Sequence record: EU863409
Reading direction: 5' to 3' (one strand)
DNA length: 64,000 nucleotides
Source of the DNA: Escherichia phage JS10
Position numbers and translations under genes: made by a program. The notes under the pieces were generated by a model, which searched no databases, was not told the DNA's origin, and saw nothing but the letters and a program-made list of their open reading frames with translations. Below, one piece after another: positions 6,664 to 59,795 of the stretch; the stretch's first letter is position 1; each line of letters opens with the position of its first letter.

Positions 6664-6989
6664 TTCGCAGCCTTAACAATTTTCAGGTCAACGAATTTTT
6701 TCTTACGCTGGTTCTTCATACGACGGATGGTTTTGTCTGTGATTTCACCCGGATGCCAAGCTTTAGATTCAACACCGAAGGCAGCAACATCAAACTCATC
6801 AAGAATATATTGAACCAGGATTTCACGAATACCATTCTTACCGATTTTTTGGTCTTTAGAATGCATAATTGGTAACAGTTCAGCAACCCATTGGTCAAGA
6901 ACCTGAGGAGTTACAAAGCCAGTTTTCATCAGTTCATTAACTTTATCGAAAGCGAAAGAGTTCAGTACGTTTTTAATAGCTTGTGACAT
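6660..6989 (-). CDS. hypothetical protein
   Basis: Start at internal ATG (MSQAIKN) directly downstream of a promoter cassette; shares 26 identical nt of RBS plus first codons with gene 13642..14484. Confidence 0.5.
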   Translation of the reverse strand: MSQAIKNVLNSFAFDKVNELMKTGFVTPQVLDQWVAELLPIMHSKDQKIGKNGIREILVQYILDEFDVAAFGVESKAWHPGEITDKTIRRMKNQRKKKFVDLKIVKAAK

Positions 6990-7059
6990 AATAATTTCCT
7001 CAGTTTTAAAATTTATAATCCGTAGGACCATTATACTCTGGTCCCAAGAGTTTGTAAAC
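6990..7059 (-). promoter_or_regulatory. sigma70-like early promoter with stem-loop over -10
   Basis: -35 GTTTAC (plus 7054-7059), 18-bp spacer, -10 TATAAT (7030-7035); hairpin GGACCA-N7-TGGTCC (7025-7043). Confidence 0.5.
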
Positions 7060-13641: not shown

Positions 13642-14484
13642 TTAATCCTTAAGAAGATTTAGGATATCGATATATTTCTGGCGTTCAGCCTTAGCTTTGG
13701 CATTCAGGCCAGAGAGTCGGAAAATCTCATCATCTTGTTGTTGGATTGTAACATTCAAGCAAGTAAGCAAATTGCTAAAATACTCGATTTGGGCTTGATG
13801 TTTCTCATTGCTGCGCACTGGCACAGGTTCTGGTTTAGGAGCTTCTGAATGCTCTTCAGCCAGGTCTTTAATTTTATAAAGTTTAATACGTTGGCCTACT
13901 CCAGTTTCAGCATCACCAAAACTAAGAACACCGTGTTGTTCTAATTCAGACAGGGCCAAGCGCAGATGGAACTTCCAGTTGTCATATTGACAACCACTAA
14001 AAGTTGAAATGGTATACTCATTTTCATTTCCAGGGTGGTTAACAATATTAAAGATAATCCAATCACCTGAACCGTTAGTCTTAAATGTCATTTGTTTATC
14101 AAGACCTTTTGCAAGGCGAGCACCAAGAGCCAGTAGACGTCGTTGGTTGGCATGAAGGTCTTGAACAACTTCGCCAAATGACATCGCCGGGATTAAACGA
14201 CCGTAGAGGTCGTAGCCTTTGTTATAATTTTTAAGAATAATTTTGGCATTAGCACGAGACAACATACCTGTTTTACGAAGAGTTTTCATGACCCGGTCTT
14301 CTAAGGTAAACAACCCTTTGGTCTTGTCAAAGATTTTAGTGAAGTCATCTTTAACAGTACAAACATTGAACTTGTCCCACATCATATATAGGACCTTTTC
14401 AACCACTTCTTTAGAACTCGGAATACGACCAAATTTAACAACTTTTTTAACTTCAGAACGAATTTGATTAATTGCTTGTGACAT
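13642..14484 (-). CDS. hypothetical protein (280 aa)
   Basis: ORF starting MSQAI with the same 26-nt 5' block as gene 6660..6989. Confidence 0.55.
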   Translation of the reverse strand: MSQAINQIRSEVKKVVKFGRIPSSKEVVEKVLYMMWDKFNVCTVKDDFTKIFDKTKGLFTLEDRVMKTLRKTGMLSRANAKIILKNYNKGYDLYGRLIPAMSFGEVVQDLHANQRRLLALGARLAKGLDKQMTFKTNGSGDWIIFNIVNHPGNENEYTISTFSGCQYDNWKFHLRLALSELEQHGVLSFGDAETGVGQRIKLYKIKDLAEEHSEAPKPEPVPVRSNEKHQAQIEYFSNLLTCLNVTIQQQDDEIFRLSGLNAKAKAERQKYIDILNLLKD

Positions 14485-14551
14485 AATAATTTCCTCAGTA
14501 AGTAATTAAGAACCTAGAACCATTATACCATCCTTGGTATAAAGCGTTTAT
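14485..14551 (-). promoter_or_regulatory. promoter-like element with stem-loop over -10
   Basis: -10 TATAAT (14522-14527) within hairpin TTATACC-N6-GGTATAA; -35 weak. Confidence 0.35.
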
Positions 14552-15072: not shown

Positions 15073-15127
15073 GATAACCTCCAGTAGTTGATAGGTCTAT
15101 AGTATCATGTCTAATGGAGATGTAAAC
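15073..15127 (-). promoter_or_regulatory. PeSL-like promoter-stem-loop cassette
   Basis: core TTGATAGGTCTATAGTATCA; -35 GTTTAC; 9-bp inverted repeat arms (one mismatch), proximal arm includes GGAGG SD. Confidence 0.55.
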
Positions 15128-15129
15128 AA

Positions 15130-15471
15130 CTAATAGAAACTTTTTTCACCGGCTTGCCCACTAAACCAGGCGGATTGTGTGTTCTCTTTCCGTTGGTGTT
15201 TAATACGAATAAGGTATTCGTTCCTGATGGCGCAGAGTTCATCTCTGAAGTCGCCTGCCAACTTAACCTGCTTACGGTCTAGATTTATTAAGGCTTGGGT
15301 CTTCGCGGCCAAGCGCAACCTCTTGAAGTCTCCTCCTTCACAACCGGTTTTATAAACCTTCTCAGCGAATTTGTGTTTAGATTCATTATCATAGTCTTCA
15401 ATAGACTGTTTCATGGCATTAGAGTATTTCAACTCTGCTTTTACAAGGTCATAACTAAATTGTTCGAACAT
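15130..15471 (-). CDS. hypothetical protein
   Basis: 113-aa ORF. Confidence 0.5.
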   Translation of the reverse strand: MFEQFSYDLVKAELKYSNAMKQSIEDYDNESKHKFAEKVYKTGCEGGDFKRLRLAAKTQALINLDRKQVKLAGDFRDELCAIRNEYLIRIKHQRKENTQSAWFSGQAGEKSFY

Positions 15472-15481
15472 AATTTCACCT

Positions 15482-16462
15482 TTATTTCAGAAGGGTAACT
15501 TCGGCGATTTCGCTCCAGTCATTTTTATCGGTGGCAATGAAGTCCGCCAGATAAAGAGCTGTACGTAATGATACGTTACGAAGACGAGATACATTGGCCT
15601 TCATCCATGCTAGAGCTTGATAAGTCTCGGCATCAGTCAGACCTCGGTTTTGCATCATATCGGTGGACAGGATAACGTCTTCAACACGAACCATAATCTC
15701 TTCGTTCGAGTGAACTCCGAGGTCTAAGTAAACTGAACGAGATACTAAAGCCTGGAGGTGTGGAGCAAGTTTAGTGCCACGTTCTAATTCACGGTCAATA
15801 TCAACGTTGGTGATGAATACGATGGTGCCTTCATATTCGAATTCTTTATCGATATTTTTATCATCGAGATAAGAACTTGAAGTGCTCCAGCACACCTTAC
15901 GTTTCTCACCGGTATCCAATGCGGCTTTCAGAAGGTTCAGGATATCCATGTCAGAGAATACATCAACATCATCAATAAGAAGAACACTATTAGGGCCGCG
16001 GTTATTCCAAAGTTGCTCGTAAAGACCGATTCCACTAATCTTTCCGTTGATTGATTTATATTCGATAGTTTCATTTTCGTGGGCATTTTGTAATGCTTTA
16101 TCCAAAGAGTATGTTTTACCAATACCTGCGGCACCAGAGATGATAAGGGAACGAATTTTACCATCAATGATTCCGTTAGTCATCATGTTCATTACTTTAA
16201 AACGTTTGTTGATGCGATGTTTCATTTCTTCAGCAGATTCAGTAACCATTGCAGGAGCTTCAGCACCTTCCATTTCAACGTCACATTTGAACACCCATAC
16301 ACCACGTTCAACACCATCAATCTGTACAAATACCTTGCCATCACCGAGGTGAGCTTCAGATTCATGAATTTTATTAGGGAACCAGGTTTTACCTGAACTC
16401 ATGAACGTACCAGAGATTTCATTACCGCGATAGATACCTTTGTTGATTTTGATAGTTAACAT
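15482..16462 (-). CDS. P-loop ATPase (Walker A GAAGIGKT, Walker B LLIDDVD)
   Basis: 326 aa from internal ATG with AAGGAG SD; N-terminal approx 100-aa domain followed by ATPase core. Confidence 0.6.
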   Translation of the reverse strand: MLTIKINKGIYRGNEISGTFMSSGKTWFPNKIHESEAHLGDGKVFVQIDGVERGVWVFKCDVEMEGAEAPAMVTESAEEMKHRINKRFKVMNMMTNGIIDGKIRSLIISGAAGIGKTYSLDKALQNAHENETIEYKSINGKISGIGLYEQLWNNRGPNSVLLIDDVDVFSDMDILNLLKAALDTGEKRKVCWSTSSSYLDDKNIDKEFEYEGTIVFITNVDIDRELERGTKLAPHLQALVSRSVYLDLGVHSNEEIMVRVEDVILSTDMMQNRGLTDAETYQALAWMKANVSRLRNVSLRTALYLADFIATDKNDWSEIAEVTLLK

Positions 16463-16526
16463 TTTATTCTCCTTCACTCAGTAGATTTGATAGGTCTATA
16501 ATAACATGTTTAAAGCAGATGTACAC
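16463..16526 (-). promoter_or_regulatory. PeSL-like cassette (variant, repeat copy 1)
   Basis: GATAGGTCTATAATAACATGTTTAAAGCAGATGTACAC; -35 GTGTAC, -10 TATTAT; palindrome AACATGTT. Confidence 0.5.
16489..16526 (-). repeat. 38-bp direct repeat (copy 1) of PeSL variant core
   Basis: GATAGGTCTATAATAACATGTTTAAAGCAGATGTACAC; second copy at 16801..16838. Confidence 0.7.
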
Positions 16527-16528
16527 AC

Positions 16529-16759
16529 TTATTTTGCAATAATTTCACAGAAGCCATCTTTATAGCGGGCCCATGTTTCACCATTTACTGTATAAAGAGC
16601 AGCTTTACGACCATTAGGCATAACAACTTGTTTACCTTTGTTTTTAGTTACAGCTTCAATAATTTCGTATTCTTCAGCACGATCAGCTTTAAAGGTATCT
16701 TCCAGAGCGATCAAGTTAGTAGTGTAAGAACCGTATTTGTAATTTTTGATAGCGTACAT
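16529..16759 (-). CDS. hypothetical protein (76 aa)
   Basis: Small ORF flanked on both sides by 38-bp direct repeats of the PeSL core. Confidence 0.5.
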   Translation of the reverse strand: MYAIKNYKYGSYTTNLIALEDTFKADRAEEYEIIEAVTKNKGKQVVMPNGRKAALYTVNGETWARYKDGFCEIIAK

Positions 16760-16838
16760 TTTTATATCTCCGTTTGGTTTAAGTTTTCAGCTCTTTAGCT
16801 GATAGGTCTATAATAACATGTTTAAAGCAGATGTACAC
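16760..16838 (-). promoter_or_regulatory. PeSL-like cassette (variant, repeat copy 2)
   Basis: Identical 38-bp core to copy 1 at 16801-16838. Confidence 0.5.
16801..16838 (-). repeat. 38-bp direct repeat (copy 2) of PeSL variant core
   Basis: Identical to 16489..16526; the two copies bracket ORF 16529..16759. Confidence 0.7.
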
Positions 16839-16850
16839 TACTTTTTTGCA

Positions 16851-16880
16851 CTAAACCCAAAAAAGGCCCGAAGGCCTTTT
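16851..16880 (-). terminator. intrinsic terminator
   Basis: GGCC-UUCG-GGCC hairpin with A/U-extended stem and U-rich tail after nucleotidyltransferase gene. Confidence 0.5.
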
Positions 16881-16881
16881 A

Positions 16882-17892
16882 TCATTTATAATACGAGTTA
16901 TGGTTTTCTAGGTAAACCTGCTCAACGAACTTGTCCCAGAACTTCATGTCCACCTTCGCAGGCATACCATTCTTAGCTGCCCAGATGGCATTGGTTTCGA
17001 CTTCATCAACTATAGCTTCGAGCTCAGCCTGTACATCTTTAAAAGCATGTAGCCCTTGTTTGATTTCAAGGATAAATGGTGCTGTTCGTAAAGGATATTG
17101 AAGGTCGCCGGTCATATAGATTTCCTTCAACTGATATCCAGCACGATAAGCATGGCTCAGAGCTTTCCAATCAATGCCTTCATTAGCTTCGGCCTTACGA
17201 GCACGTTCACCATATTCAGCATCAAGTTTATTCAGAGATTGCTTAAGCTCGATTAATGACAAAGTAGTTTGGTACTTACGTCCGAGGACAGTATAGAACG
17301 TTTGAGGACCTGTTTTCTCATGGTTATGAAATACCCATTCACAGAACTCGTTTTCAGGAAGTCGATGTTTGATATCTTCTACCTTAGTGCGACGTTGCTT
17401 AGTAGAACCATCTTCTTGATAATCAACCCACTGTTCAGGAATCTGGTTAACGATAGCCAGTACACCACGCAGAGCAGCCAGACGAGAACCCTTAACACCA
17501 TATTTAGAAGCTTGCTTACGGACGTACCCTAAATAGGCTTTCATGTTAGTTGTATAGAAACGCGAACGGTTATCTTGGATAAATTTCCATACATCAGGTA
17601 AATCAGATTTAACCACCATTTCGGGTGGAGTGTGGAGCATATCCAGAGCAACGGTTTCGCCATCAGCAGCCAGTTTAAAGAAATATTTCAGGCTGTAAAG
17701 CTCATGGTCAACATCATCTTTAGTGTTTTTGGAAGCAGTGTTATTCGTGTTCAGGTTGGTATGGTTCATTGCCGTACCTAACAGAATATCACGCGGATGT
17801 GGAACAAAGATTTCTTTAAAATCGACATCAGATTCCGGAGTACTTGTTCCATAAAGATGGCTACCGAAGTAGCCTTTCATAACTGTTCTCAT
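16882..17892 (-). CDS. Pol-beta-superfamily nucleotidyltransferase
   Basis: G-S-x10-D-V-D motif (GSHLYGTSTPESDVDF) near N-terminus; start at ATG forming ATGA overlap with upstream stop. Confidence 0.6.
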   Translation of the reverse strand: MRTVMKGYFGSHLYGTSTPESDVDFKEIFVPHPRDILLGTAMNHTNLNTNNTASKNTKDDVDHELYSLKYFFKLAADGETVALDMLHTPPEMVVKSDLPDVWKFIQDNRSRFYTTNMKAYLGYVRKQASKYGVKGSRLAALRGVLAIVNQIPEQWVDYQEDGSTKQRRTKVEDIKHRLPENEFCEWVFHNHEKTGPQTFYTVLGRKYQTTLSLIELKQSLNKLDAEYGERARKAEANEGIDWKALSHAYRAGYQLKEIYMTGDLQYPLRTAPFILEIKQGLHAFKDVQAELEAIVDEVETNAIWAAKNGMPAKVDMKFWDKFVEQVYLENHNSYYK

Positions 17893-24015: not shown

Positions 24016-24072
24016 TTTGTAATCTCCTGTAGTTGATAGGTCTATAGTACCACGTCTACAGGAGATGTAAAC
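24016..24072 (-). promoter_or_regulatory. PeSL-like promoter-stem-loop cassette (upstream of regB)
   Basis: -35 GTTTAC, 17-bp spacer, -10 TACTAT; perfect 9-bp arms CTCCTGTAG / CTACAGGAG (24024-24032 / 24056-24064). Confidence 0.6.
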
Positions 24073-24077
24073 TGCTT

Positions 24078-24356
24078 TTAGTATTTTTCTTCAGGTTGGA
24101 AAACGGAACGACAGGCCCACATGGATGCTTCTTTCAAGCGTTCGATTGCCGTACGAATCTGGGCGAGACGTTCATGAGTGAGGTCGAATTCTTCATCACT
24201 CATTTTATCAACACCCGAGCATGTAAAGGCTTCAACATATTCTTCTTCTAGTGCTTTAAAGATTAAGCCTAATCGAACTTCAGCATCTTTAATGGCATTC
24301 ACTTTACTGATTTTATCGTCGGTATGTGGCTTGTAACCTTTGATATCTTCAATCAT
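24078..24356 (-). CDS. hypothetical protein (vs.3-vs.8 region)
   Basis: 92-aa ORF; ATGA-coupled chain. Confidence 0.45.
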   Translation of the reverse strand: MIEDIKGYKPHTDDKISKVNAIKDAEVRLGLIFKALEEEYVEAFTCSGVDKMSDEEFDLTHERLAQIRTAIERLKEASMWACRSVFQPEEKY

Positions 24357-26303: not shown

Positions 26304-26359
26304 TTTTAATCTCCTGTAGTTGATAGGTCTATAGTATCATGCCTACAGGAGAAGTAAAC
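26304..26359 (-). promoter_or_regulatory. PeSL-like promoter-stem-loop cassette (upstream of denV)
   Basis: Same architecture and arms as regB cassette; -35 GTTTAC 26354-26359. Confidence 0.6.
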
Positions 26360-26758
26360 TTATTTGTAAGTTTTCATCCAATTCTTGAACAGAGCTGCAA
26401 CGTCTTTCTCTTTAACGTTCAATTTAACGTCCAGCATTTTGCCACCAGCGGCACGTGTCTGACGAATCTTAGCCGTACCGGTTTCGCCATTCCACTCAAC
26501 ATAATACTGCCCGGTGTTCATAGCGATACCATCGCCATAGTCTTCGTTCTTAGAAGTAGTGAATGCCAACTTCATGGTCTTAGAGACACGGGCCTGCATG
26601 CCTGTCTGCAGAGCGTTACGAACGCGAATAACCTGAGGAGTGGCCTGGGTCAGGTTCTCGTTCAGTTCTTCGGTGAACTCTTCTGATTCAAACATTGCCA
26701 AAAGTTCAGCGGGCGCCGGGATTACAGCTTCGGCGATAAATTCATTGTAAGTTTTCAT
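26360..26758 (-). CDS. internal-protein-like capsid-targeted protein (ipII position)
   Basis: N-terminus MKTYNEFIAE; 132 aa; C-terminus ends WMKTYK-stop, a remnant CTS start. Confidence 0.6.
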   Translation of the reverse strand: MKTYNEFIAEAVIPAPAELLAMFESEEFTEELNENLTQATPQVIRVRNALQTGMQARVSKTMKLAFTTSKNEDYGDGIAMNTGQYYVEWNGETGTAKIRQTRAAGGKMLDVKLNVKEKDVAALFKNWMKTYK

Positions 26759-27396: not shown

Positions 27397-27475
27397 ACGG
27401 GTCCTTCAAATGTAAATTTAATTAGTCTGTTCAAGTAACTGTAGATATACTATCACAATTCTAGGAGATGTAAAC
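27397..27475 (-). promoter_or_regulatory. PeSL-like cassette (variant) upstream of internal-protein operon
   Basis: -35 GTTTAC (27470-27475), 17-bp spacer, -10 TAGTAT. Confidence 0.45.
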
Positions 27476-30176: not shown

Positions 30177-30242
30177 TTTATTCTCCATTTCACTCTGTTG
30201 TTTTGATAGGTCTATAGTATCACACCTATAGACCTTGTATAC
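30177..30242 (-). promoter_or_regulatory. PeSL-like promoter-stem-loop cassette (type with core-derived stem)
   Basis: -35 GTATAC, -10 TACTAT; perfect 10-bp stem AGGTCTATAG / CTATAGACCT (30208-30217 / 30226-30235). Confidence 0.55.
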
Positions 30243-30254
30243 TGTTTTATGCAA

Positions 30255-31214
30255 TTATTTTTCGAAAGGACGAATTAAATGTTGGTTAGCCTTGAAACGA
30301 TTAACATAGTCTTCGCGACCCAGGGTGTTATACATATTAACCACAGCTTGGTAGTTTTCCCAGGCATACTCACGGAACCATCCAGAAGTAATGGAGGTAC
30401 AGACTTTTTCCAGAGCAACATGGAAGCTCACGGATGGAGAGATATTGAACTCATTAGGAACCTGCGAACGCTCTAGAGCAAGTACACATGCTTCTTCATA
30501 TACGCCAGCCAGTTTAATAGCTTCAGGCAAAGCTTCAAACTTCTCACGTGAGGTCATGACTTCAGAACCATCTTTCATATAAAAGGTATACGCTGGGCGT
30601 CCAGCCAATGCCACAGCTTCATGGATAGAGTCATGGTCTAATGTATAAATGGTATCATTAAAGAACGATGATTTGTTTACATCCAATTTAGGATGAGAAT
30701 AGCTCAACGTTTCTTTCTGGCGTTGCAGCATGATTTCTTGGAGCTCTTCATTCAAGGTTACACCTTTATTACGAAGATATTTGATGTGGGACATCGTCTT
30801 CAAAAAGAACGGGTTGTTCTTCAAATAACGATGGCTCATTTTGATAGCCAGACAGATATCAGGCGTGGCCCAATAGAAACCAGTAAGACGATCCTTTTTA
30901 ATATGATTTTCAGCATATTTCAGGAGACGATAACTTGAGGTGAAATCTTCGTCCTGAAGCTCACCGGTAATTTCTCGTACGTTAGTCAGAGCACGGACAA
31001 TATAAGCTTCAAAATAGGTTTCTTTACCATTGTACATACATTTAAAGGCCTGGACATCTGGATTATCCACAGGGACATGGGCGCCGAACATCCGGGCTTT
31101 AAATTGATTCCATGAGCCTTGGTCGGCAATAAAATCCCAATCAGAATTTTCAATATACTTACTTTCAATCAGACCAGCGTGGTGCAGTGCACGAGAACCA
31201 ATAACTAGCATCAT
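30255..31214 (-). CDS. hypothetical protein (319 aa), possible nucleotidyltransferase-like N-terminus
   Basis: N-terminal IGSRAL...SDWDF weakly resembles a G-S...D-x-D fold motif; otherwise unassigned. Confidence 0.5.
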   Translation of the reverse strand: MMLVIGSRALHHAGLIESKYIENSDWDFIADQGSWNQFKARMFGAHVPVDNPDVQAFKCMYNGKETYFEAYIVRALTNVREITGELQDEDFTSSYRLLKYAENHIKKDRLTGFYWATPDICLAIKMSHRYLKNNPFFLKTMSHIKYLRNKGVTLNEELQEIMLQRQKETLSYSHPKLDVNKSSFFNDTIYTLDHDSIHEAVALAGRPAYTFYMKDGSEVMTSREKFEALPEAIKLAGVYEEACVLALERSQVPNEFNISPSVSFHVALEKVCTSITSGWFREYAWENYQAVVNMYNTLGREDYVNRFKANQHLIRPFEK

Positions 31215-35595: not shown

Positions 35596-35618
35596 ATCTT
35601 TTTTAAACTTTTAGAAAC

Positions 35619-35646
35619 AAAAAAGGCCCAACCTTTCGGAAGGGCC
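35619..35646 (-). terminator. intrinsic terminator
   Basis: GGCCC...GAAA...GGGCC hairpin plus U6; identical sequence repeated at 36242..36270. Confidence 0.55.
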
Positions 35647-35651
35647 TCGAA

Positions 35652-36206
35652 TCAGTTCTTGTAGAACCGGAATGGGTTCACGTGGAAGGCTAACATAGCT
35701 TTAGGGATTTTACGAGACAAAAGGCTCTTAAGCTTCCAGCCACAGTAAACGCGAAGGTAAAATGTGATTCCGCCGACCTTAAGATAAGGAACTGAAGCAA
35801 ATACACCCCAGGCATCATCATTCCACATCCACAACCAACCATGGTGGGCTTTATCAGGAGAACCTGATTCTACGTCAGGATTACCACGATAATGGAATTC
35901 CGAGCTACAATCACGGCCTAGTTTATGATAAGCAAAGTTATAAGCTTTATTTCGCCATAGCCAAGCTACTCTCTGGAGATAAACACCGCCAGGCATTTTC
36001 CTGATTTTAGCCCAACGTTTAATATGACCTTTATCGCCGTCAATTGGATTATCGTATGTCATCATCCAATCAAAACCATATGGCAATTTACCAGTCTTTT
36101 TATTATGAAAAGGAACCACAAAAGGCGCAAGGATAACGGCTAGAACCATAGAGATAAAATCTAGTGGGACCAACAGAATCCAACTCAAATATTTTAAAAG
36201 TTTCAT
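35652..36206 (-). CDS. membrane-anchored protein (184 aa), late-promoter driven
   Basis: N-terminal signal-anchor helix; TATAAATA 27 nt upstream; flanked by identical terminator hairpins. Confidence 0.5.
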   Translation of the reverse strand: MKLLKYLSWILLVPLDFISMVLAVILAPFVVPFHNKKTGKLPYGFDWMMTYDNPIDGDKGHIKRWAKIRKMPGGVYLQRVAWLWRNKAYNFAYHKLGRDCSSEFHYRGNPDVESGSPDKAHHGWLWMWNDDAWGVFASVPYLKVGGITFYLRVYCGWKLKSLLSRKIPKAMLAFHVNPFRFYKN

Positions 36207-36232: not shown

Positions 36233-36240
36233 TATTTATA
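36233..36240 (-). promoter_or_regulatory. T4-type late promoter (TATAAATA)
   Basis: Exact TATAAATA 27 nt upstream of gene 35652..36206, just downstream of a terminator. Confidence 0.5.
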
Positions 36241-36241
36241 C

Positions 36242-36270
36242 AAAAAAGGCCCAACCTTTCGGAAGGGCCT
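36242..36270 (-). terminator. intrinsic terminator after tRNA/sRNA cluster
   Basis: Same 29-bp hairpin plus U6 as at 35619..35646. Confidence 0.55.
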
Positions 36271-38424: not shown

Positions 38425-38490
38425 TTTATTCTCCAATCACTCATTTGTTTTGATAGGGCTATAGTATCATCACTAAAGCCCGTTGTAAAC
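38425..38490 (-). promoter_or_regulatory. PeSL-like promoter-stem-loop cassette (covarying stem)
   Basis: core GATAGGGCTATAGTATCA with stem GGGCTATAG / CTAAAGCCC; -35 GTTTAC. Confidence 0.55.
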
Positions 38491-38492
38491 AC

Positions 38493-38786
38493 TTATTTTG
38501 TAATTTCTTTGATTTTAGAAACTACTTTATCTTTGGTAAGACCGGAAAAAGTCTTATATTTTGTAAAGTGGATATCATCACCAAGATTAATATAATATTT
38601 CTTTTTAACCGTATTGAATGCTATACTAACAGGTTTACCATTTACTGTAATAGTAATTTGCTGAGCCTTATCAACATCACCTGAGCCAAAGGCTCTTTTA
38701 ATATCGCTACTAATATCGGCCATAGCCGCTTTGTTAATGGAATACAAATCTGTCGATTCTTTGATAAATTCTTGATAAGTTTTCAT
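38493..38786 (-). CDS. internal-protein-like capsid-targeted protein
   Basis: N-terminus MKTYQEFIKE; 97 aa; downstream of canonical PeSL-like cassette. Confidence 0.6.
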   Translation of the reverse strand: MKTYQEFIKESTDLYSINKAAMADISSDIKRAFGSGDVDKAQQITITVNGKPVSIAFNTVKKKYYINLGDDIHFTKYKTFSGLTKDKVVSKIKEITK

Positions 38787-38855
38787 TTTTTTGTTTCCGT
38801 TAGGTTGGGTTTGTTTTGATAGGTCTATAGTATCATGCCTATAGACCTTGTAAAC
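38787..38855 (-). promoter_or_regulatory. PeSL-like promoter-stem-loop cassette
   Basis: -35 GTTTAC (38850-38855), 17-bp spacer, -10 TACTAT; perfect 10-bp stem 38821-38830 / 38839-38848. Confidence 0.6.
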
Positions 38856-38866
38856 ATCTTTTTAAA

Positions 38867-39780
<914 letters not shown>

Positions 39781-48302: not shown

Positions 48303-51300
48303 ATGTCTGTACAAGCGCCTTATGTTACTAGTCTGAGAATTGATAAGCTCTCGGCTAACCATGTGAGCATTCTTTGGGATGACGTAGGCGCCAACTTCTA
48401 TTATTTCGTAGAACTGGCCCAAACGAAGGATGCGGGTGTAGAAATTCCCGACGATAGATTATTTTGGAGAAATTTAGGTTACACCCCTAATAACGAATGG
48501 TTTGAAGAGGCATTCATTTCTCCTAATTCATTTTATAAAATGCGAGTTGCGGTCGCTGCTCAGGGGTTTGAGCAGTCTGAGTGGGTTTACACTGAAGAAT
48601 TTGAAACTTTCTCTACCAACGCATATACATTTGAGCATATGCGTGAATTCACATTGTCTAATAAATTTATTGAAGAAAAATTCACAAAAAATAATCAGAA
48701 TTATGTGAACTTTAATACCGATGCCATTATGGCTTCCTTAATGACGGAAGATTTTAACTTTACGCCGGCGTATTCGCATTTGTCATCTATATCAAATTAT
48801 GTTTTAAAAGCCGACCGATTCCATGAAATCCAAGGAAGCATTCAAGCAGTTTGTAAAGACCCTAGACGTTCTATTTTAATGGAACTTGGTGGAGTTCTGT
48901 ATCTTTTAGAAAGATTCCAAAGCACAGCTAAAGTTTCTAATGATAAAGGACAAAACTGGCACTATATTAGATTGTTTAACGATAGAGTGGGTAATCCGGT
49001 ATCTAGAACGGCTCATTACCAAACAGAAACTACTACATACGTACTAGGTTATGACCAAATATTTTACGGGCGTAAATCAAGTGATATTAGATGGTCTGCT
49101 GATGACGTTCGCTTTAGTTCTCAGGACGTAACATTTGCTAAAATCGGTAGTGATATAGACCTTCCGTTTGAAATAGAAATATTTGGGTCATACGCAAAAC
49201 TCCCATTGCCTATTTCCACTATCGCCGAAGCTATGTGTGCTTCTGACGATTTCATTTATGTTGCGGGTAGAGACAGAGTTTATAAAGCAAAAACATCCGA
49301 GGCCCCTATAGACACCGACCCTAGCTCACCAACTTACGGCGAGAAGATATTTGAAAGCGGATATTCAACTATCACAGGGAACCCTAAAGCTGTTTGTTAT
49401 AAATTAGATTCTATTCAAGGGCATACGTTTGCTTTAATTACAGGTGAAGTTAAAGAAGAAAAAATGGACCCTACAGTAGAGGCTAACGTAATTGATTCTG
49501 AATCTAAAGGTGTCTATTGGTTGGATGTAGAAACAGATACTTGGACTCGTGTATTCGGAAATACTGAAGAAGAACGTCGTCGTATAGAGCATGGATATAC
49601 TAGCATGTCTACAGATGGTGAAGAATTATTTTTCAGTTCAAGCAACTTTAGATACGAAGTAGAGGTTGATTCTGAACTTCCTTGGAAATATCCTGAAATT
49701 GTTACTTCGGCCGTTAAATACGTTAAAGACGAACAGTGGATTCATAATAAGCATTATTTGATGATGAGCTTTAGGTCTAACTCTAAATCAGATTTTAAAG
49801 AATTTAAACCAGGTCGTATGGCTTATTATGCTGAACCATTCTTCAGTTGGTCACGTCGTGATGGAACCCGTTCTTGGATTACTACAGGTGACCATGCGAT
49901 GGTTGTTTATAACGATGCTTTGTATCAGAAAATAATCGACCTTAATAGTGGTTCATCGCCGGAACGTATTGTTCACGAGATTTGGAATAAAGGATTTTGC
50001 AAAGTTACATCCCCTAATATCGAATTTAATGGCTTTAAAAAATATTCCTCTGGTATGATGATTCACAAATCTACCGGTGAATTAGTTGGTTATTTTGAAT
50101 TCGACTATCGTGTGCGTGATGAAGTCCGTGTTATTTGGAAGCCTAAAGAAATTATGTTTACGGCAGAGCTCCAAAACCAAGAGCATGAAATTCCATGGGC
50201 CCCTAAAGAAGAGACCGGCGAACAAGACCCTGATTTGAAACCGTTATTGGTCAAAATGGTTCCGGATAGTTATTTACTCCAAGATTCCAATTTTGAAAAA
50301 TTCTGCGAATATTATCTACAGTTTATTAGTGATGGTTCCGGCACTCATTATAATAATTTGTTAAACCTTATTCGTAATCAGTATCCTCGTGAAGAAGACT
50401 CATGGGAATACCTATGGTCTGAAATTTATAAACGTAATATCTATTTGTCAAAAGAAAAACGCGACGAAGTTGTTAGATTTTTCCAAGCTCGTCAGTCTGA
50501 TTTTTGGTCAACTAAAGGTACTGAAGCTTCATATAAATTCCTGTTTAAATTGCTTTATAATGAAGATGTCGAAATTGATATCGAGTCCAAGAACTCTATC
50601 GAATATGATATCATCGTAGAATCCGACAATATCAGTGAAGATATCGTAGGCCAAACGATTTATACTCCTACAGGAAGAAGTAATGTTACTTATATAGAAC
50701 GAAATTACAAAGATGGTAAATTGCAATGGCGTTTAACCATTCATAATCTTTTGGGTCGTTTTATAGTCGGTCAGGAAATCAAATCTGAACGTACTTCATT
50801 TAAGGGTATGATTGTTCAAGGTGTTCGCGGCAAAGAGCTTTTGAGTAACAATATCGATTATATCAACCGTAACCGTTCTTACTATGTGATGACTATTAAG
50901 TCTAATCTCCCGACCTCTCGTTATCGCAATGACGTTTTGAGATTTGTTCACCCGGTAGGTTTCGGCTTTATAGGTATAACTTTGCTTTCTATGTTTGTTA
51001 ACGTTGGTTTAACACTAAAACATACAGAAACCATTATTAATATCCTTAAGAACTATAAATGGGACTCAGGTTTGCCATCTGAATGGTATGATAGAGTTGC
51101 TGTAATAGGTTTTGATGGTAATATAGAACGAGACCCTCGTACAGGTGCTCCGATGTACAACGTTGGACCTAAAGCAGGTGAGCCATTTGATATTCCTGCC
51201 GATTATGATGCAGAAAATGATTTCTCTGTATTCCAAGGTCAATTACCACACGAACGTATTAAAAAGCATAGTCCATTGTTTGACCAAAGTGCTGTGACTT

Positions 51301-57395: not shown

Positions 57396-59795
57396 ATGAT
57401 TAACAAATTGGAACTTAGTGAGTTACCATTTGTTGACGGCGTACCTGATGCTCCTCAAAAGCGTATCCAATGGATACGCGAGGGTGATTGTATGTCTGCG
57501 GCAAAAACAAAATACGGCAATGAAGGTAATTTGAACGCTGCTGCTTTAGGAGTTCAGAAAAACGTAGAAGCTCTTGATGCCAACGATTTAAAAACTGCTG
57601 ATAAAGTTAATGAGCTTATAGAAAACGTTAATAATATCAATGACGCTTTAGAAATGTCAACAGATATTTCTATCATTCAACAAATAGAGAAAAACCGTGT
57701 TGATATTGTAGACCTTAAAAAAGTCACCGAAGATACAACAGAAAAATTGGACACCTTAACAACCAATTTTGATTTCTTGCGTGAAGATGTTGGTTATCAT
57801 GACCCTTTACAAGACGGCCCATATTTAACTGTACGTGAAAATATTGTTCTTCTTAAAACTGAAATAGGTCATTATGAAAACCAGGATATAAACGGCAATC
57901 CACTGCCTCCTGGCGAAACTAATGAAGCCACTGGTATAAAACGCCGCATCATGGATAATACCACTGAATTGGTGGACCATCGTCTCCGCCTTGATACCCT
58001 TGAAAGAAACTATGAAGATTCTGATGTTGGACAATTGGGTATTAAATTAAATGAAATTCGCGCCGAATTAGGACCACATTCTGATACGGTAGGTAAACAA
58101 CCTGCATATACCCGAATTTCAGTATTAGAAACGGCTGCAGTTAATTTTAATACAGCTATTGACGAAATTAAGGATAATATTGATTTCTCTGGTATGCCTA
58201 TAAAGGACCGAGTAACTACTTTAGAAAGCAAAACCTTTACCTTAGAAAATTCGGTTAATGTTGATTTAAAACCTAGAGTAACTTCTATAGAAACTCAAAT
58301 CGGATCCGAGTCTGCACCGGCATCTATTAATGGTCGTTTAAGCGGACTTCGTACTGATGTAAATGATTTAAAAACCGTAGTAGGTGTTAGTTCAAGTGAT
58401 GGCCTACGTTTCCAAGTTACTGATATCAACCGCCGTTTAGGTAGTGAAGTATCTCCGGCTGCAGGAACCATTAATAAGCGTTTAAATGATGTTATTATTC
58501 AAGCAAACCAATCCACCTCGTCTATCCAGGATATTCAGGTAAAAATTGGTAACAACCAATCCGGTATTAAGGGTACTTTACTTAAACTCACCGATAAGGT
58601 TGACGGGACGAACCCTAACGGAGCTACCGTAGAAGAACGTGGTCTTATTAATGCGGTTACTTCTTTAGAAACCCAGATGCAAGGTAAATTAGGTGATGCA
58701 CCTTCTGATGGTAAACTCTATGCACGTCGAAATGCGGCATGGGCTGAAGTTGTTAATAATTCCACAGAAATAGAAACCGTTAAAGCCGATTTAGTTGTTA
58801 CCGACGGTAAAGTGACCGCGTTAACTTCCAGAGTAGATGGTAATGATACCTCAATTTCTTCTCTTGATACTCGTACCGGTGCATTAAACACTTCGGTTGG
58901 CGAGATTAAAGCTGATATAGTTTCTATAAAGGCTAAAGATGATGAACAGGATGGTCGTTTAACAGCACTTGAATCTAGTGATGTGACCATTAACGGTAAA
59001 ATTGCTGCTCTTGAAACTAAGACAGATACCACTGATGATGATGTCACAGCACTGGCTTTAGACGTTTCTTCTTTAGAGAACCAATTGACTCCTATAAAAG
59101 CCGATATTACCAAAAACAAAGGTGATATTGTTGCCTTAACTGGTCGAGTGGCTTCTACTGAAGGCGAAATTAATGCAATTAAAGTTGATACAGCCAAAAT
59201 TGCTCCTTTAACAACTAGAGTTACTACGGCAGAAGGTAAAATCACTACTTTAGAAACAGGGCTTGCCGCTGTTAAAGTCGAATCCGATAAGGTAGCAGGT
59301 ATTAATACCCGCCTTAGCACTGCAGAAGGTGACATCGGAACACTTAAAACAGGGTTGGCTGAAGTTAAGGGTGAATCCGATAAAGTAGCAGCTATAGATA
59401 CCCGTTTAGGTGTTGTTGAAGTTGAATCAGGTAAAGTAGCAGGAATCGATGCTCGTTTGGGTGATGTTGAAGGCGAAGTTAGTACTCTTGAAACGGGTTT
59501 AGCTGCCGTTAAAGTCGAATCCGATAAGGTAGCAGGTATTAATACCCGTTTAGGTACGGTCGAAGGTAAAGTTGGTACTCTTGAAACAGGTTTGGCTGCT
59601 GTTAAAGTTGAATCTGATAAAGTTGCTGACTTAGGAACCCGTTTAACCGCCGCCGAAGGTAAAATTACGGCCTTAGAAACAGAATTATCTAAACGTCCAC
59701 CGGTGGCTCCTGCCGCAGACGGACTTCCGTATGTTCTGGTTGATAACGCATGGGTATTATTGTCTGATTTTGTGACTTTAAACTCAGCGCCATAA
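57396..59795 (+). CDS. wac: fibritin (whisker antigen control, wac), expanded
   Basis: 799-aa coiled-coil protein with C-terminal foldon-like YVLVDNAWVLLSDF; internal tandem repeats; followed by terminator. Confidence 0.8.
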   Translation: MINKLELSELPFVDGVPDAPQKRIQWIREGDCMSAAKTKYGNEGNLNAAALGVQKNVEALDANDLKTADKVNELIENVNNINDALEMSTDISIIQQIEKNRVDIVDLKKVTEDTTEKLDTLTTNFDFLREDVGYHDPLQDGPYLTVRENIVLLKTEIGHYENQDINGNPLPPGETNEATGIKRRIMDNTTELVDHRLRLDTLERNYEDSDVGQLGIKLNEIRAELGPHSDTVGKQPAYTRISVLETAAVNFNTAIDEIKDNIDFSGMPIKDRVTTLESKTFTLENSVNVDLKPRVTSIETQIGSESAPASINGRLSGLRTDVNDLKTVVGVSSSDGLRFQVTDINRRLGSEVSPAAGTINKRLNDVIIQANQSTSSIQDIQVKIGNNQSGIKGTLLKLTDKVDGTNPNGATVEERGLINAVTSLETQMQGKLGDAPSDGKLYARRNAAWAEVVNNSTEIETVKADLVVTDGKVTALTSRVDGNDTSISSLDTRTGALNTSVGEIKADIVSIKAKDDEQDGRLTALESSDVTINGKIAALETKTDTTDDDVTALALDVSSLENQLTPIKADITKNKGDIVALTGRVASTEGEINAIKVDTAKIAPLTTRVTTAEGKITTLETGLAAVKVESDKVAGINTRLSTAEGDIGTLKTGLAEVKGESDKVAAIDTRLGVVEVESGKVAGIDARLGDVEGEVSTLETGLAAVKVESDKVAGINTRLGTVEGKVGTLETGLAAVKVESDKVADLGTRLTAAEGKITALETELSKRPPVAPAADGLPYVLVDNAWVLLSDFVTLNSAP
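59223..59675 (+). repeat. tandem coiled-coil repeat region inside wac
   Basis: At least three copies of an approx 30-aa unit TLETGLAAVKVESDKVAGINTRL; two copies share a long identical nucleotide block. Confidence 0.6.

Follow-up and report, generated by a model that had tools for sequence, protein, structure and literature searches.

Why does a small open reading frame (ORF) in a T4-like phage genome lie between two identical copies of one short sequence, and does this arrangement mark a gene that is gained and lost? The ORF in question encodes 76 amino acids and lies within the window, the 64,000-nucleotide stretch of Escherichia phage JS10 (sequence record EU863409) that was analyzed as a whole. 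An earlier note on this DNA had described a 38-bp sequence at 16489–16526 and again at 16801–16838, flanking the ORF at 16529–16759. Both the repeat and the ORF were confirmed. The 38-mer has exactly two occurrences on the plus strand of the window, where 100 dinucleotide-preserving shuffles gave an expected count of 0.00, and match extension showed the true length of the exact direct repeat to be 39 bp (16488–16526 and 16800–16838, with a period of 312 bp). The earlier note was silent on the strand of the ORF, which is the minus strand. The features of the locus are listed here in the order of transcription, with coordinates given for the window.

16882–17892, minus strand: nrdC.11 homologue (nucleotidyltransferase), the upstream flank; from the JS98 annotation, PHROG 388 and Pfam RlaP.
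16861–16880, minus strand: predicted intrinsic terminator hairpin after nrdC.11, AAAAGGCC-UUCG-GGCCUUUU followed by a U-run; from the terminator scan.
16800–16838, minus strand: predicted promoter, copy 1, upstream of the 76-aa ORF; an exact 39-bp repeat with a sigma-70-like match, belonging to the early-promoter family of the window.
16760–16799, minus strand: 5′ UTR of the 76-aa ORF; its Shine-Dalgarno sequence GGAG is 8 nt from the ATG, and it holds a small hairpin, CAGCTAAAGAGCTG.
16529–16759, minus strand: the 76-aa accessory ORF, encoding a predicted small all-beta protein.
16488–16526, minus strand: predicted promoter, copy 2, identical to copy 1 and preceding nrdC.10; a “half” cassette without a stem-loop upstream.
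16463–16487, minus strand: 5′ UTR of nrdC.10; together with the −10 half of copy 2 this is the stretch common to ORF-less alleles, and it is the junction site in phages WG01 and PSD9.
15482–16462, minus strand: nrdC.10 homologue (AAA-type NTPase-like), the downstream flank; from the JS98 annotation, PHROG 1250 and weak Pfam AAA hits.

A 2-kb query covering the locus matched Escherichia phage JS98 (Dhakavirus, Tevenvirinae) at 97.6% identity, and the closest record over 20 kb is MN04 at 96.5%. The window is from a JS98-like Dhakavirus in which the ORF lies between nrdC.11 and nrdC.10, and all genes adjoining the ORF are also on the minus strand. Copy 1 sits 40 nt upstream of the ATG of the ORF, and copy 2 begins 2 nt past its stop codon. 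The GC-rich terminator hairpin (fold energy −13.4 kcal/mol, z = −2.6) is 22 nt upstream of the −35 element of copy 1. Together with the A-rich tract GCAAAAAAG and copy 1 it makes up a complete promoter/stem-loop cassette of the PeSL type; PeSLs are repeated early promoter/terminator cassettes in hyperplastic regions, flanking ORFans that differ between close relatives (PMC2839356). No stable structure was found at copy 2 when 16463–16540 was folded (z = +1.6), and the terminator scan placed no terminator between the 76-aa ORF and nrdC.10. Among the 13 ORFs scanned between 11.4 and 22.7 kb there was no integrase or recombinase; their PHROG annotations are unknown function, nucleotidyltransferase, membrane protein, thymidine kinase and phosphatase. 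No homing endonuclease family was matched within about 5 kb on either side of the ORF.

Read on the minus strand, each repeat consists of GTGTAC at −35, the 17-nt spacer ATCTGCTTTAAACATGT, TATTAT at −10, and then AGACCTATCA. The spacer contains an extended −10 TGn, so that the overall form is GTGTAC-17 nt-TGtTATTAT, and an AT-rich tract lies 5′ of the −35 element (GCAAAAAAGTA at copy 1, AAAATAAGT at copy 2). The consensus for T4 early promoters has GTTTAC at −36 to −31, an extended −10 and an A-rich UP-like element (Nolan et al., 2006, PMC1524935), and that for the PeSL promoters of T4/PST is TTTACW-N17-TAYWAT (PMC4122927), with which the repeat promoter has one mismatch. Each copy of the repeat is a predicted T4-type early sigma-70 promoter; promoter and terminator calls in this study rest on consensus and folding, from which activity is deduced. 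Both the 76-aa ORF and nrdC.10 have a GGAG Shine-Dalgarno sequence with the ATG 8–9 nt later. The repeat spacer also holds TGCTTTA, the core sequence of the MotA box (window positions 16505–16517 and 16817–16829). A MotA-dependent middle promoter was considered and rejected, as the motif is 7 nt from the −10 element and 11–13 nt are required (PMC1524935).

The repeat belongs to a wider family. At least nine related copies of the pattern GTTTAC-N17-TAYWAT-AGACCTATC exist in the window, exclusively on the minus strand; each stands directly 5′ of a Shine-Dalgarno sequence and ATG, within 20–45 nt. The earlier note's term “cassette core” is apt insofar as these relatives exist, but what they share is a predicted early promoter on the strand opposite to the one it had read, and no dedicated recombination site. 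Family members share 20–34 of 38 positions in pairwise comparison (26–34 if the divergent copy at 27475 is left aside). The 38/38 identity of the pair goes beyond this similarity, so promoter consensus does not explain it.

Some other promoters of the family contain an embedded stem-loop, which was sought in both repeat copies and is present in neither. These stem-loops are of two classes. In class a (24020–24093, 26307–26380 and 15075–15148) the spacer between −35 and −10 (ATCTCCTGTAG) pairs with the downstream Shine-Dalgarno region (CTACAGGAGAT), a pairing that would hide the ribosome-binding site in read-through transcripts and not in transcripts begun at the promoter itself. In class b (30197–30259, 38444–38506 and 38810–38872) the pairing partner of the spacer is the −10 region with the bases that follow it (AGGTCTATAG/CTATAGACCT).

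Further repeats were noted elsewhere in the window. A second ORF between identical repeats encodes 184 aa (35652–36206, minus strand) and is flanked by identical 31-nt intrinsic terminator hairpins (35617–35647 and 36240–36270, 623 bp apart); it is preceded by the T4 late-promoter-like sequence TATAAATA. Its architecture is that of the 76-aa locus, with terminators as the repeats and not promoters. A 32-nt repeat, 97% identical, at 6973–7004 and 14468–14499 (7.5 kb apart) spans the Shine-Dalgarno sequence, start codon and first codons of two minus-strand genes. At 59139–59645 a unit of about 177 nt occurs in four overlapping, diverged copies (60–77% identity), spaced 93 and 144 nt apart; this repeat is probably internal to a structural protein gene.

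The protein encoded between the two promoter copies has no Pfam domain, and its PHROG matches are only to families of unknown function. A word-indexed homologue search with the 76-aa sequence returned only itself, and a full HMMER scan gave 13 hits. The exhaustive scan defines a small family of phage proteins, 76–140 aa long, with the conserved core V-x-MPNGRKA-x-LF-x-V-x-x-E-x-WARY-x-DG. Hits to large proteins were rejected as clues to function, being low-complexity or repeat artefacts (e.g., P0004) or a marginal match to an RCC1 blade. The AlphaFold2 model, built on a 7-sequence alignment, is mostly beta with a pLDDT of 83. From the predicted promoter and the GGAG Shine-Dalgarno sequence we infer that the product is an early-expressed accessory protein. 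The ORF has six variable sites among the genomes that carry it, all of them synonymous third positions, which marks it as a genuine gene on which purifying selection acts. WG01, PSD9, EcWhh-1, UP19 and ABTNLsp5 have it annotated as a hypothetical protein, whereas it is unannotated in both JS98 records (NC_010105.1, at 49270–49497, and EF469154.1). The absence of this gene from the JS98 reference annotation is a practical point for users of that reference.

Whether such a gene is private to one phage can be seen from its relatives. At least 49 related records cover at least 80% of the 2-kb query, and the ORF is found at 100% amino-acid identity in nine of them, which represent seven isolates (JS98, WG01, PSD9, EcWhh-1, UP19, ABTNLsp5 and Ec2-ASingh). 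The repeat arrangement is accordingly neither private to the genome of the window nor new in it, being common to these seven other isolates from two Dhakavirus species. The comparison of presence and absence that the earlier note had proposed does bear out an accessory module, one that is present, absent or replaced in close relatives.

At least six alleles of the nrdC.11–nrdC.10 slot occur within Dhakavirus. In the empty allele (IME08, Bp7, VR5, NC-G and others) a terminator, an A-tract and one promoter come straight before nrdC.10. CLB_P2 has an unrelated 74-aa ORF in the slot, and 04086 has this CLB_P2-type ORF together with a secreted-looking 93-aa ORF. In MN04 and AnYang the slot holds a collagen-like gene of about 250 aa on the opposite strand, with the annotation “tail needle knob”; MN04, the nearest backbone to the window, bears a different allele from it. 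The hairpin followed by GGGTTTAGTGCAAAAAA is kept in most slot alleles, those of MN04 and AnYang being without it. The 93-aa ORF of 04086 has a canonical MotA-type middle promoter in front of it, AATGCTTTA-N12-TACAAT (about 1560–1625 of the locus, minus strand), which indicates that slot modules bring differing promoter classes. The “tail needle knob” gene (1266–2021 of the locus in MN04, 1266–2024 in AnYang and 897–1670 in PEi20) has G-X-Y repeats and 55–80% identity among these three phages, in the same slot, and is an odd passenger in an early-gene region.

Four other T4-like lineages have homologues of the 76-aa ORF (39–54% identity) that either adjoin nrdC.10 on its upstream side or lie close to it there, namely in EcS1 (Kagamiyamavirus), PEi20 (Kanagawavirus), CkP1 and CC31 (Karamvirus), and Serratia phage 92A1. 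The 5′ UTR of the ORF is homologous to those of the PEi20 and Serratia 92A1 homologues. Since the homologues hold the same position, the ORF is at its native slot and not at a new insertion site. The 74-aa ORF and the “knob” gene of other Dhakavirus alleles also have homologues in these lineages, in the same order, so that the Dhakavirus alleles are subsets of a collinear gene pool common to several genera. At the nrdC.10 slot of EcS1 and PEi20 the promoter spacer is identical to that of the repeat at 16 of 17 positions, with ORF proteins only about 54% identical. The EcS1 homologue is bracketed by near-identical promoter copies (45 bp, one mismatch) that share an identical spacer, one position off the JS98-type spacer. 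Gene conversion between adjacent copies would be expected to leave such matching spacers within the EcS1 genome.

The two copies are identical in the window, JS98, WG01 and PSD9, and differ at 4–7 positions in the other four isolates. In EcWhh-1, UP19 and ABTNLsp5 the downstream copy has four spacer differences (ATCCATTTCAAAC), in Ec2-ASingh it has five differences, and the upstream copy has private changes in ABTNLsp5 and Ec2-ASingh. According to the earlier note, diverged repeats in all relatives would have pointed to an ancient, fixed architecture; such divergence is seen in these four carriers, and the remaining four retain perfect identity. That identity may reflect gene conversion between adjacent copies or a recent common origin.

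Sequence divergence places the module apart from its surroundings. Across the eight carriers the 353-bp segment from the terminator through the ORF has at most five differences (≤1.4%), whereas the flanks differ by 4–8%, with up to 79 of 943 positions in nrdC.11 and up to 42 of 889 in nrdC.10; the module is about 10-fold less diverged. Between JS98 and WG01 the flanks differ by 6.4% and the module at 1 of 353 positions (binomial P = 1.6e-9), and other carrier pairs gave binomial P values from 2e-8 to 3e-6. The same holds for third positions, of which 6 of 77 are variable in the ORF vs. 176 of about 664 in the flanks. Divergence so far below that of the flanks indicates a module much younger than the backgrounds in which it lies, one spread laterally by recombination. 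The data argue for recent lateral spread of the module among Dhakavirus lineages, as read from these alignments. Low module diversity could in part stem from a small carrier population and not from mobility. The earlier description of a “recently mobilised gene cassette” therefore holds for the shallow divergence and the recent lateral spread, but not for a new insertion, the ORF being at its native slot.

The ends of the shared tracts suggest where exchange may have occurred. In WG01 and PSD9 the end of the tract in common with JS98 falls somewhere from 16488 to 16473, no more than about 15 nt beyond copy 2, and past this junction the 5′ UTR of WG01 is of the Bp7/AnYang type. A junction at this position would imply a crossover in the approximately 35 bp of homology that the UTR and the −10 half of the promoter make up together. 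The left-hand tract boundaries are inside the 3′ end of nrdC.11 (about 16915–16957, 35–75 nt in) and not at the cassette, so that ordinary flank homology appears to contribute at least as much as the cassette does. On the nrdC.10 side the boundaries are blurred by the 5′ end of that gene, which is 98–99% conserved in every allele.

The earlier note had expected the ORF to be inserted or excised by recombination between copies. At empty sites the promoter reads GTTTACACCCTCGTAGAGCATG... in IME08-type and GTTTACAACCTGATTAATCGTG... in VR5-type genomes, and only 10 of 17 spacer positions are shared with the repeat promoter. With a different promoter in place, the sequenced empty sites are no simple product of excision. 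A synthetic excision junction was searched against a phage collection (50,697 records), where full-length matches were at most 90.5% identical and of the IME08 type, and in IMG/VR, which had no exact match. The repeat promoter itself was found in IMG/VR only in JS98, and a search of JGI metagenome contigs with a degenerate promoter core found nothing. As no allele with a single JS98-type promoter appeared in phage records, IMG/VR or JGI metagenome contigs, excision between the copies did not find support at this locus; a precise 312-bp deletion or mini-circle excision, to which the repeats would predispose the ORF, is a prediction. The insertion route fared no better, because a single crossover into the sequenced empty alleles would not yield two identical copies. 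Replacement by a donor block already bearing promoter, ORF and promoter fits better.

Taken together, the locus is probably a duplicated T4-type early promoter that flanks a 312-bp plug-in module, exchanged by the modular shuffling already published for PeSLs. The upstream copy, behind the terminator and the A-rich tract, would drive the 76-aa ORF, and the downstream copy would drive nrdC.10. The ORF and one promoter copy would then form a self-contained unit of 312 bp that fits the nrdC.11–nrdC.10 slot, a hyperplastic intergenic site of T-even-like phages. During co-infection, homologous recombination by the phage may cross over at conserved terminator, promoter and UTR sequences and at gene ends. 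The module could move between genomes in this way without disturbing nrdC.10 expression, because every outcome would leave a promoter before nrdC.10.

Three other readings of the same observations must be weighed against modular shuffling. If the architecture were ancient and fixed, it would have been inherited vertically, the copies would be identical through promoter constraint, and relatives without the ORF would represent old deletions. The homologues upstream of nrdC.10 in EcS1, PEi20, CkP1, CC31 and Serratia 92A1 are in keeping with this, as are the 16/17 spacer match to the slot promoters of EcS1 and PEi20 and the four carriers with diverged repeats. We nevertheless regard vertical inheritance as quite improbable, given module divergence of ≤1.4% against 4–8% in the flanks, synonymous sites included, and another allele in MN04, the nearest backbone; nor does promoter function need identity, since family members share only 20–34 of 38 positions. 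The 8-genome data already point to a module tree that is shallower than the flank trees and incongruent with them. Selection for expression only, with the duplication serving to match the ORF and nrdC.10 in early timing and strength and the repeats being irrelevant to gene gain and loss, is similarly doubtful. It would suit two genes of an early-gene region that both have a GGAG Shine-Dalgarno sequence and no terminator separating them, and the recurrence of the same spacer motif at this slot in other genera. It leaves unexplained the presence/absence polymorphism, the shallow module divergence and the WG01 junction in the promoter/UTR, and carriers with four spacer mismatches exist. There is likewise little probability that a promoter–ORF mini-circle integrated recently, by a single crossover, into the resident nrdC.10 promoter of an IME08-like ancestor. 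Circles formed between flanking PeSLs have been demonstrated in RB49/phi1 (PMC2839356), and the JS98-type and IME08-type alleles share the left flank at 98%, their differences being confined to the stretch of the nrdC.10 promoter that runs from the −35 element into the −10. Such an event, however, predicts that the upstream copy would be an IME08-type hybrid and the downstream copy of the JS98 type, where the observed copies are both of the JS98 type or of the JS98 type and a third variant; it would also need, as target or product, a genome with only one JS98-type promoter, and none was found in the phage collection, IMG/VR or metagenomes.

An assembly or sequencing artefact that duplicated a short segment would account for the perfect identity of the copies and for nothing else. 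The arrangement is present in seven independently sequenced isolates (nine database records), and the intervening ORF is both conserved and subject to purifying selection, so that this reading is effectively refuted and its probability close to nil. A further proposal goes beyond modular shuffling: the copies may be kept identical by recurrent gene conversion, with the spacer ATCTGCTT(T/C)AAACATGT a functional element and not neutral sequence. We hold this to be unlikely. The spacer, which three genera share at 16 of 17 positions in this slot, could serve as a site for a phage regulator, given its out-of-register Mot-box-like TGCTTTA, or as a preferred recombination signal that travels with the gene family. 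If this proposal were true, the cassette would be a specialised, selected signal for exchange and regulation, and more than a promoter used incidentally by recombination.

Under modular shuffling, the locus is a clean natural example of how T4-like phages may gain, lose and exchange small early genes with the expression of a neighbour undisrupted. It opens no new biological question, and its slot with at least six alleles offers a place in which the exchange mechanism can be measured directly. The Dhakavirus (JS98) group has been used in phage therapy trials. The locus is predicted to be unstable in production lysates through the 312-bp deletion.

As promoters, the repeats resemble the early promoters of T4 in their −35 element (GTGTAC vs. 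GTTTAC), 17-nt spacer, TGn and TATTAT −10, in the A-rich tract upstream of copy 1, and in their position 5′ of a conserved early-region gene and a novel ORF; they differ in the third base of the −35 hexamer, which is G in place of T. The integron gene cassette, in which small promoter-associated accessory ORFs are bounded by repeats in an array, is a superficial parallel only. The present locus has no integrase, attI or attC, and its repeats are predicted promoters that would be used by general homologous recombination. Deletion in T4 and E. coli through homologous or slipped recombination at short direct repeats (Albertini et al., 1982, as cited in PMC4122927) is another comparison, for exact 39-bp repeats 312 bp apart are a classic substrate and the product would keep one predicted promoter. 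No deletion product was found for this locus in the collections searched, and here the parallel stays a prediction.

The closest known system is that of the PeSLs, in which crossovers fall between the −10 element and the start codon and mini-circles were shown experimentally in RB49/phi1 (Arbiol et al., 2010, PMC2839356); a later study applied the model to T4/PST and KVP40/nt-1 as well (Comeau et al., 2014, PMC4122927). For JS98, PMC2839356 mentions PeSL-like sequences only at the g43 locus, and the nrdC.10/nrdC.11 module is not described there. The likeness lies in the sigma-70-like early promoter with its A/T-rich upstream tract and, at copy 1, an adjoining stem-loop terminator, and in the intergenic position within a hyperplastic region that has at least six alleles at the slot. 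A small ORFan is flanked here and some relatives have a single cassette, as with RB49 ORFan192 vs. phi1, and one crossover appears to lie in the interval from the −10 to the start codon, where those of the sequenced RB49 mini-circles also lie. Unlike the PeSLs described before, this locus is in a different phage group, its downstream copy has no stem-loop, which leaves copy 1 as the single full PeSL, and its copies are identical over 39 bp where PeSL copies are merely similar. The empty allele here has a different promoter and is no direct excision product, and mini-circles, demonstrated in RB49/phi1, are at this locus a prediction. With these differences, the nrdC.11–nrdC.10 locus is a fresh example of the PeSL modular shuffling already described, extended to another genus.
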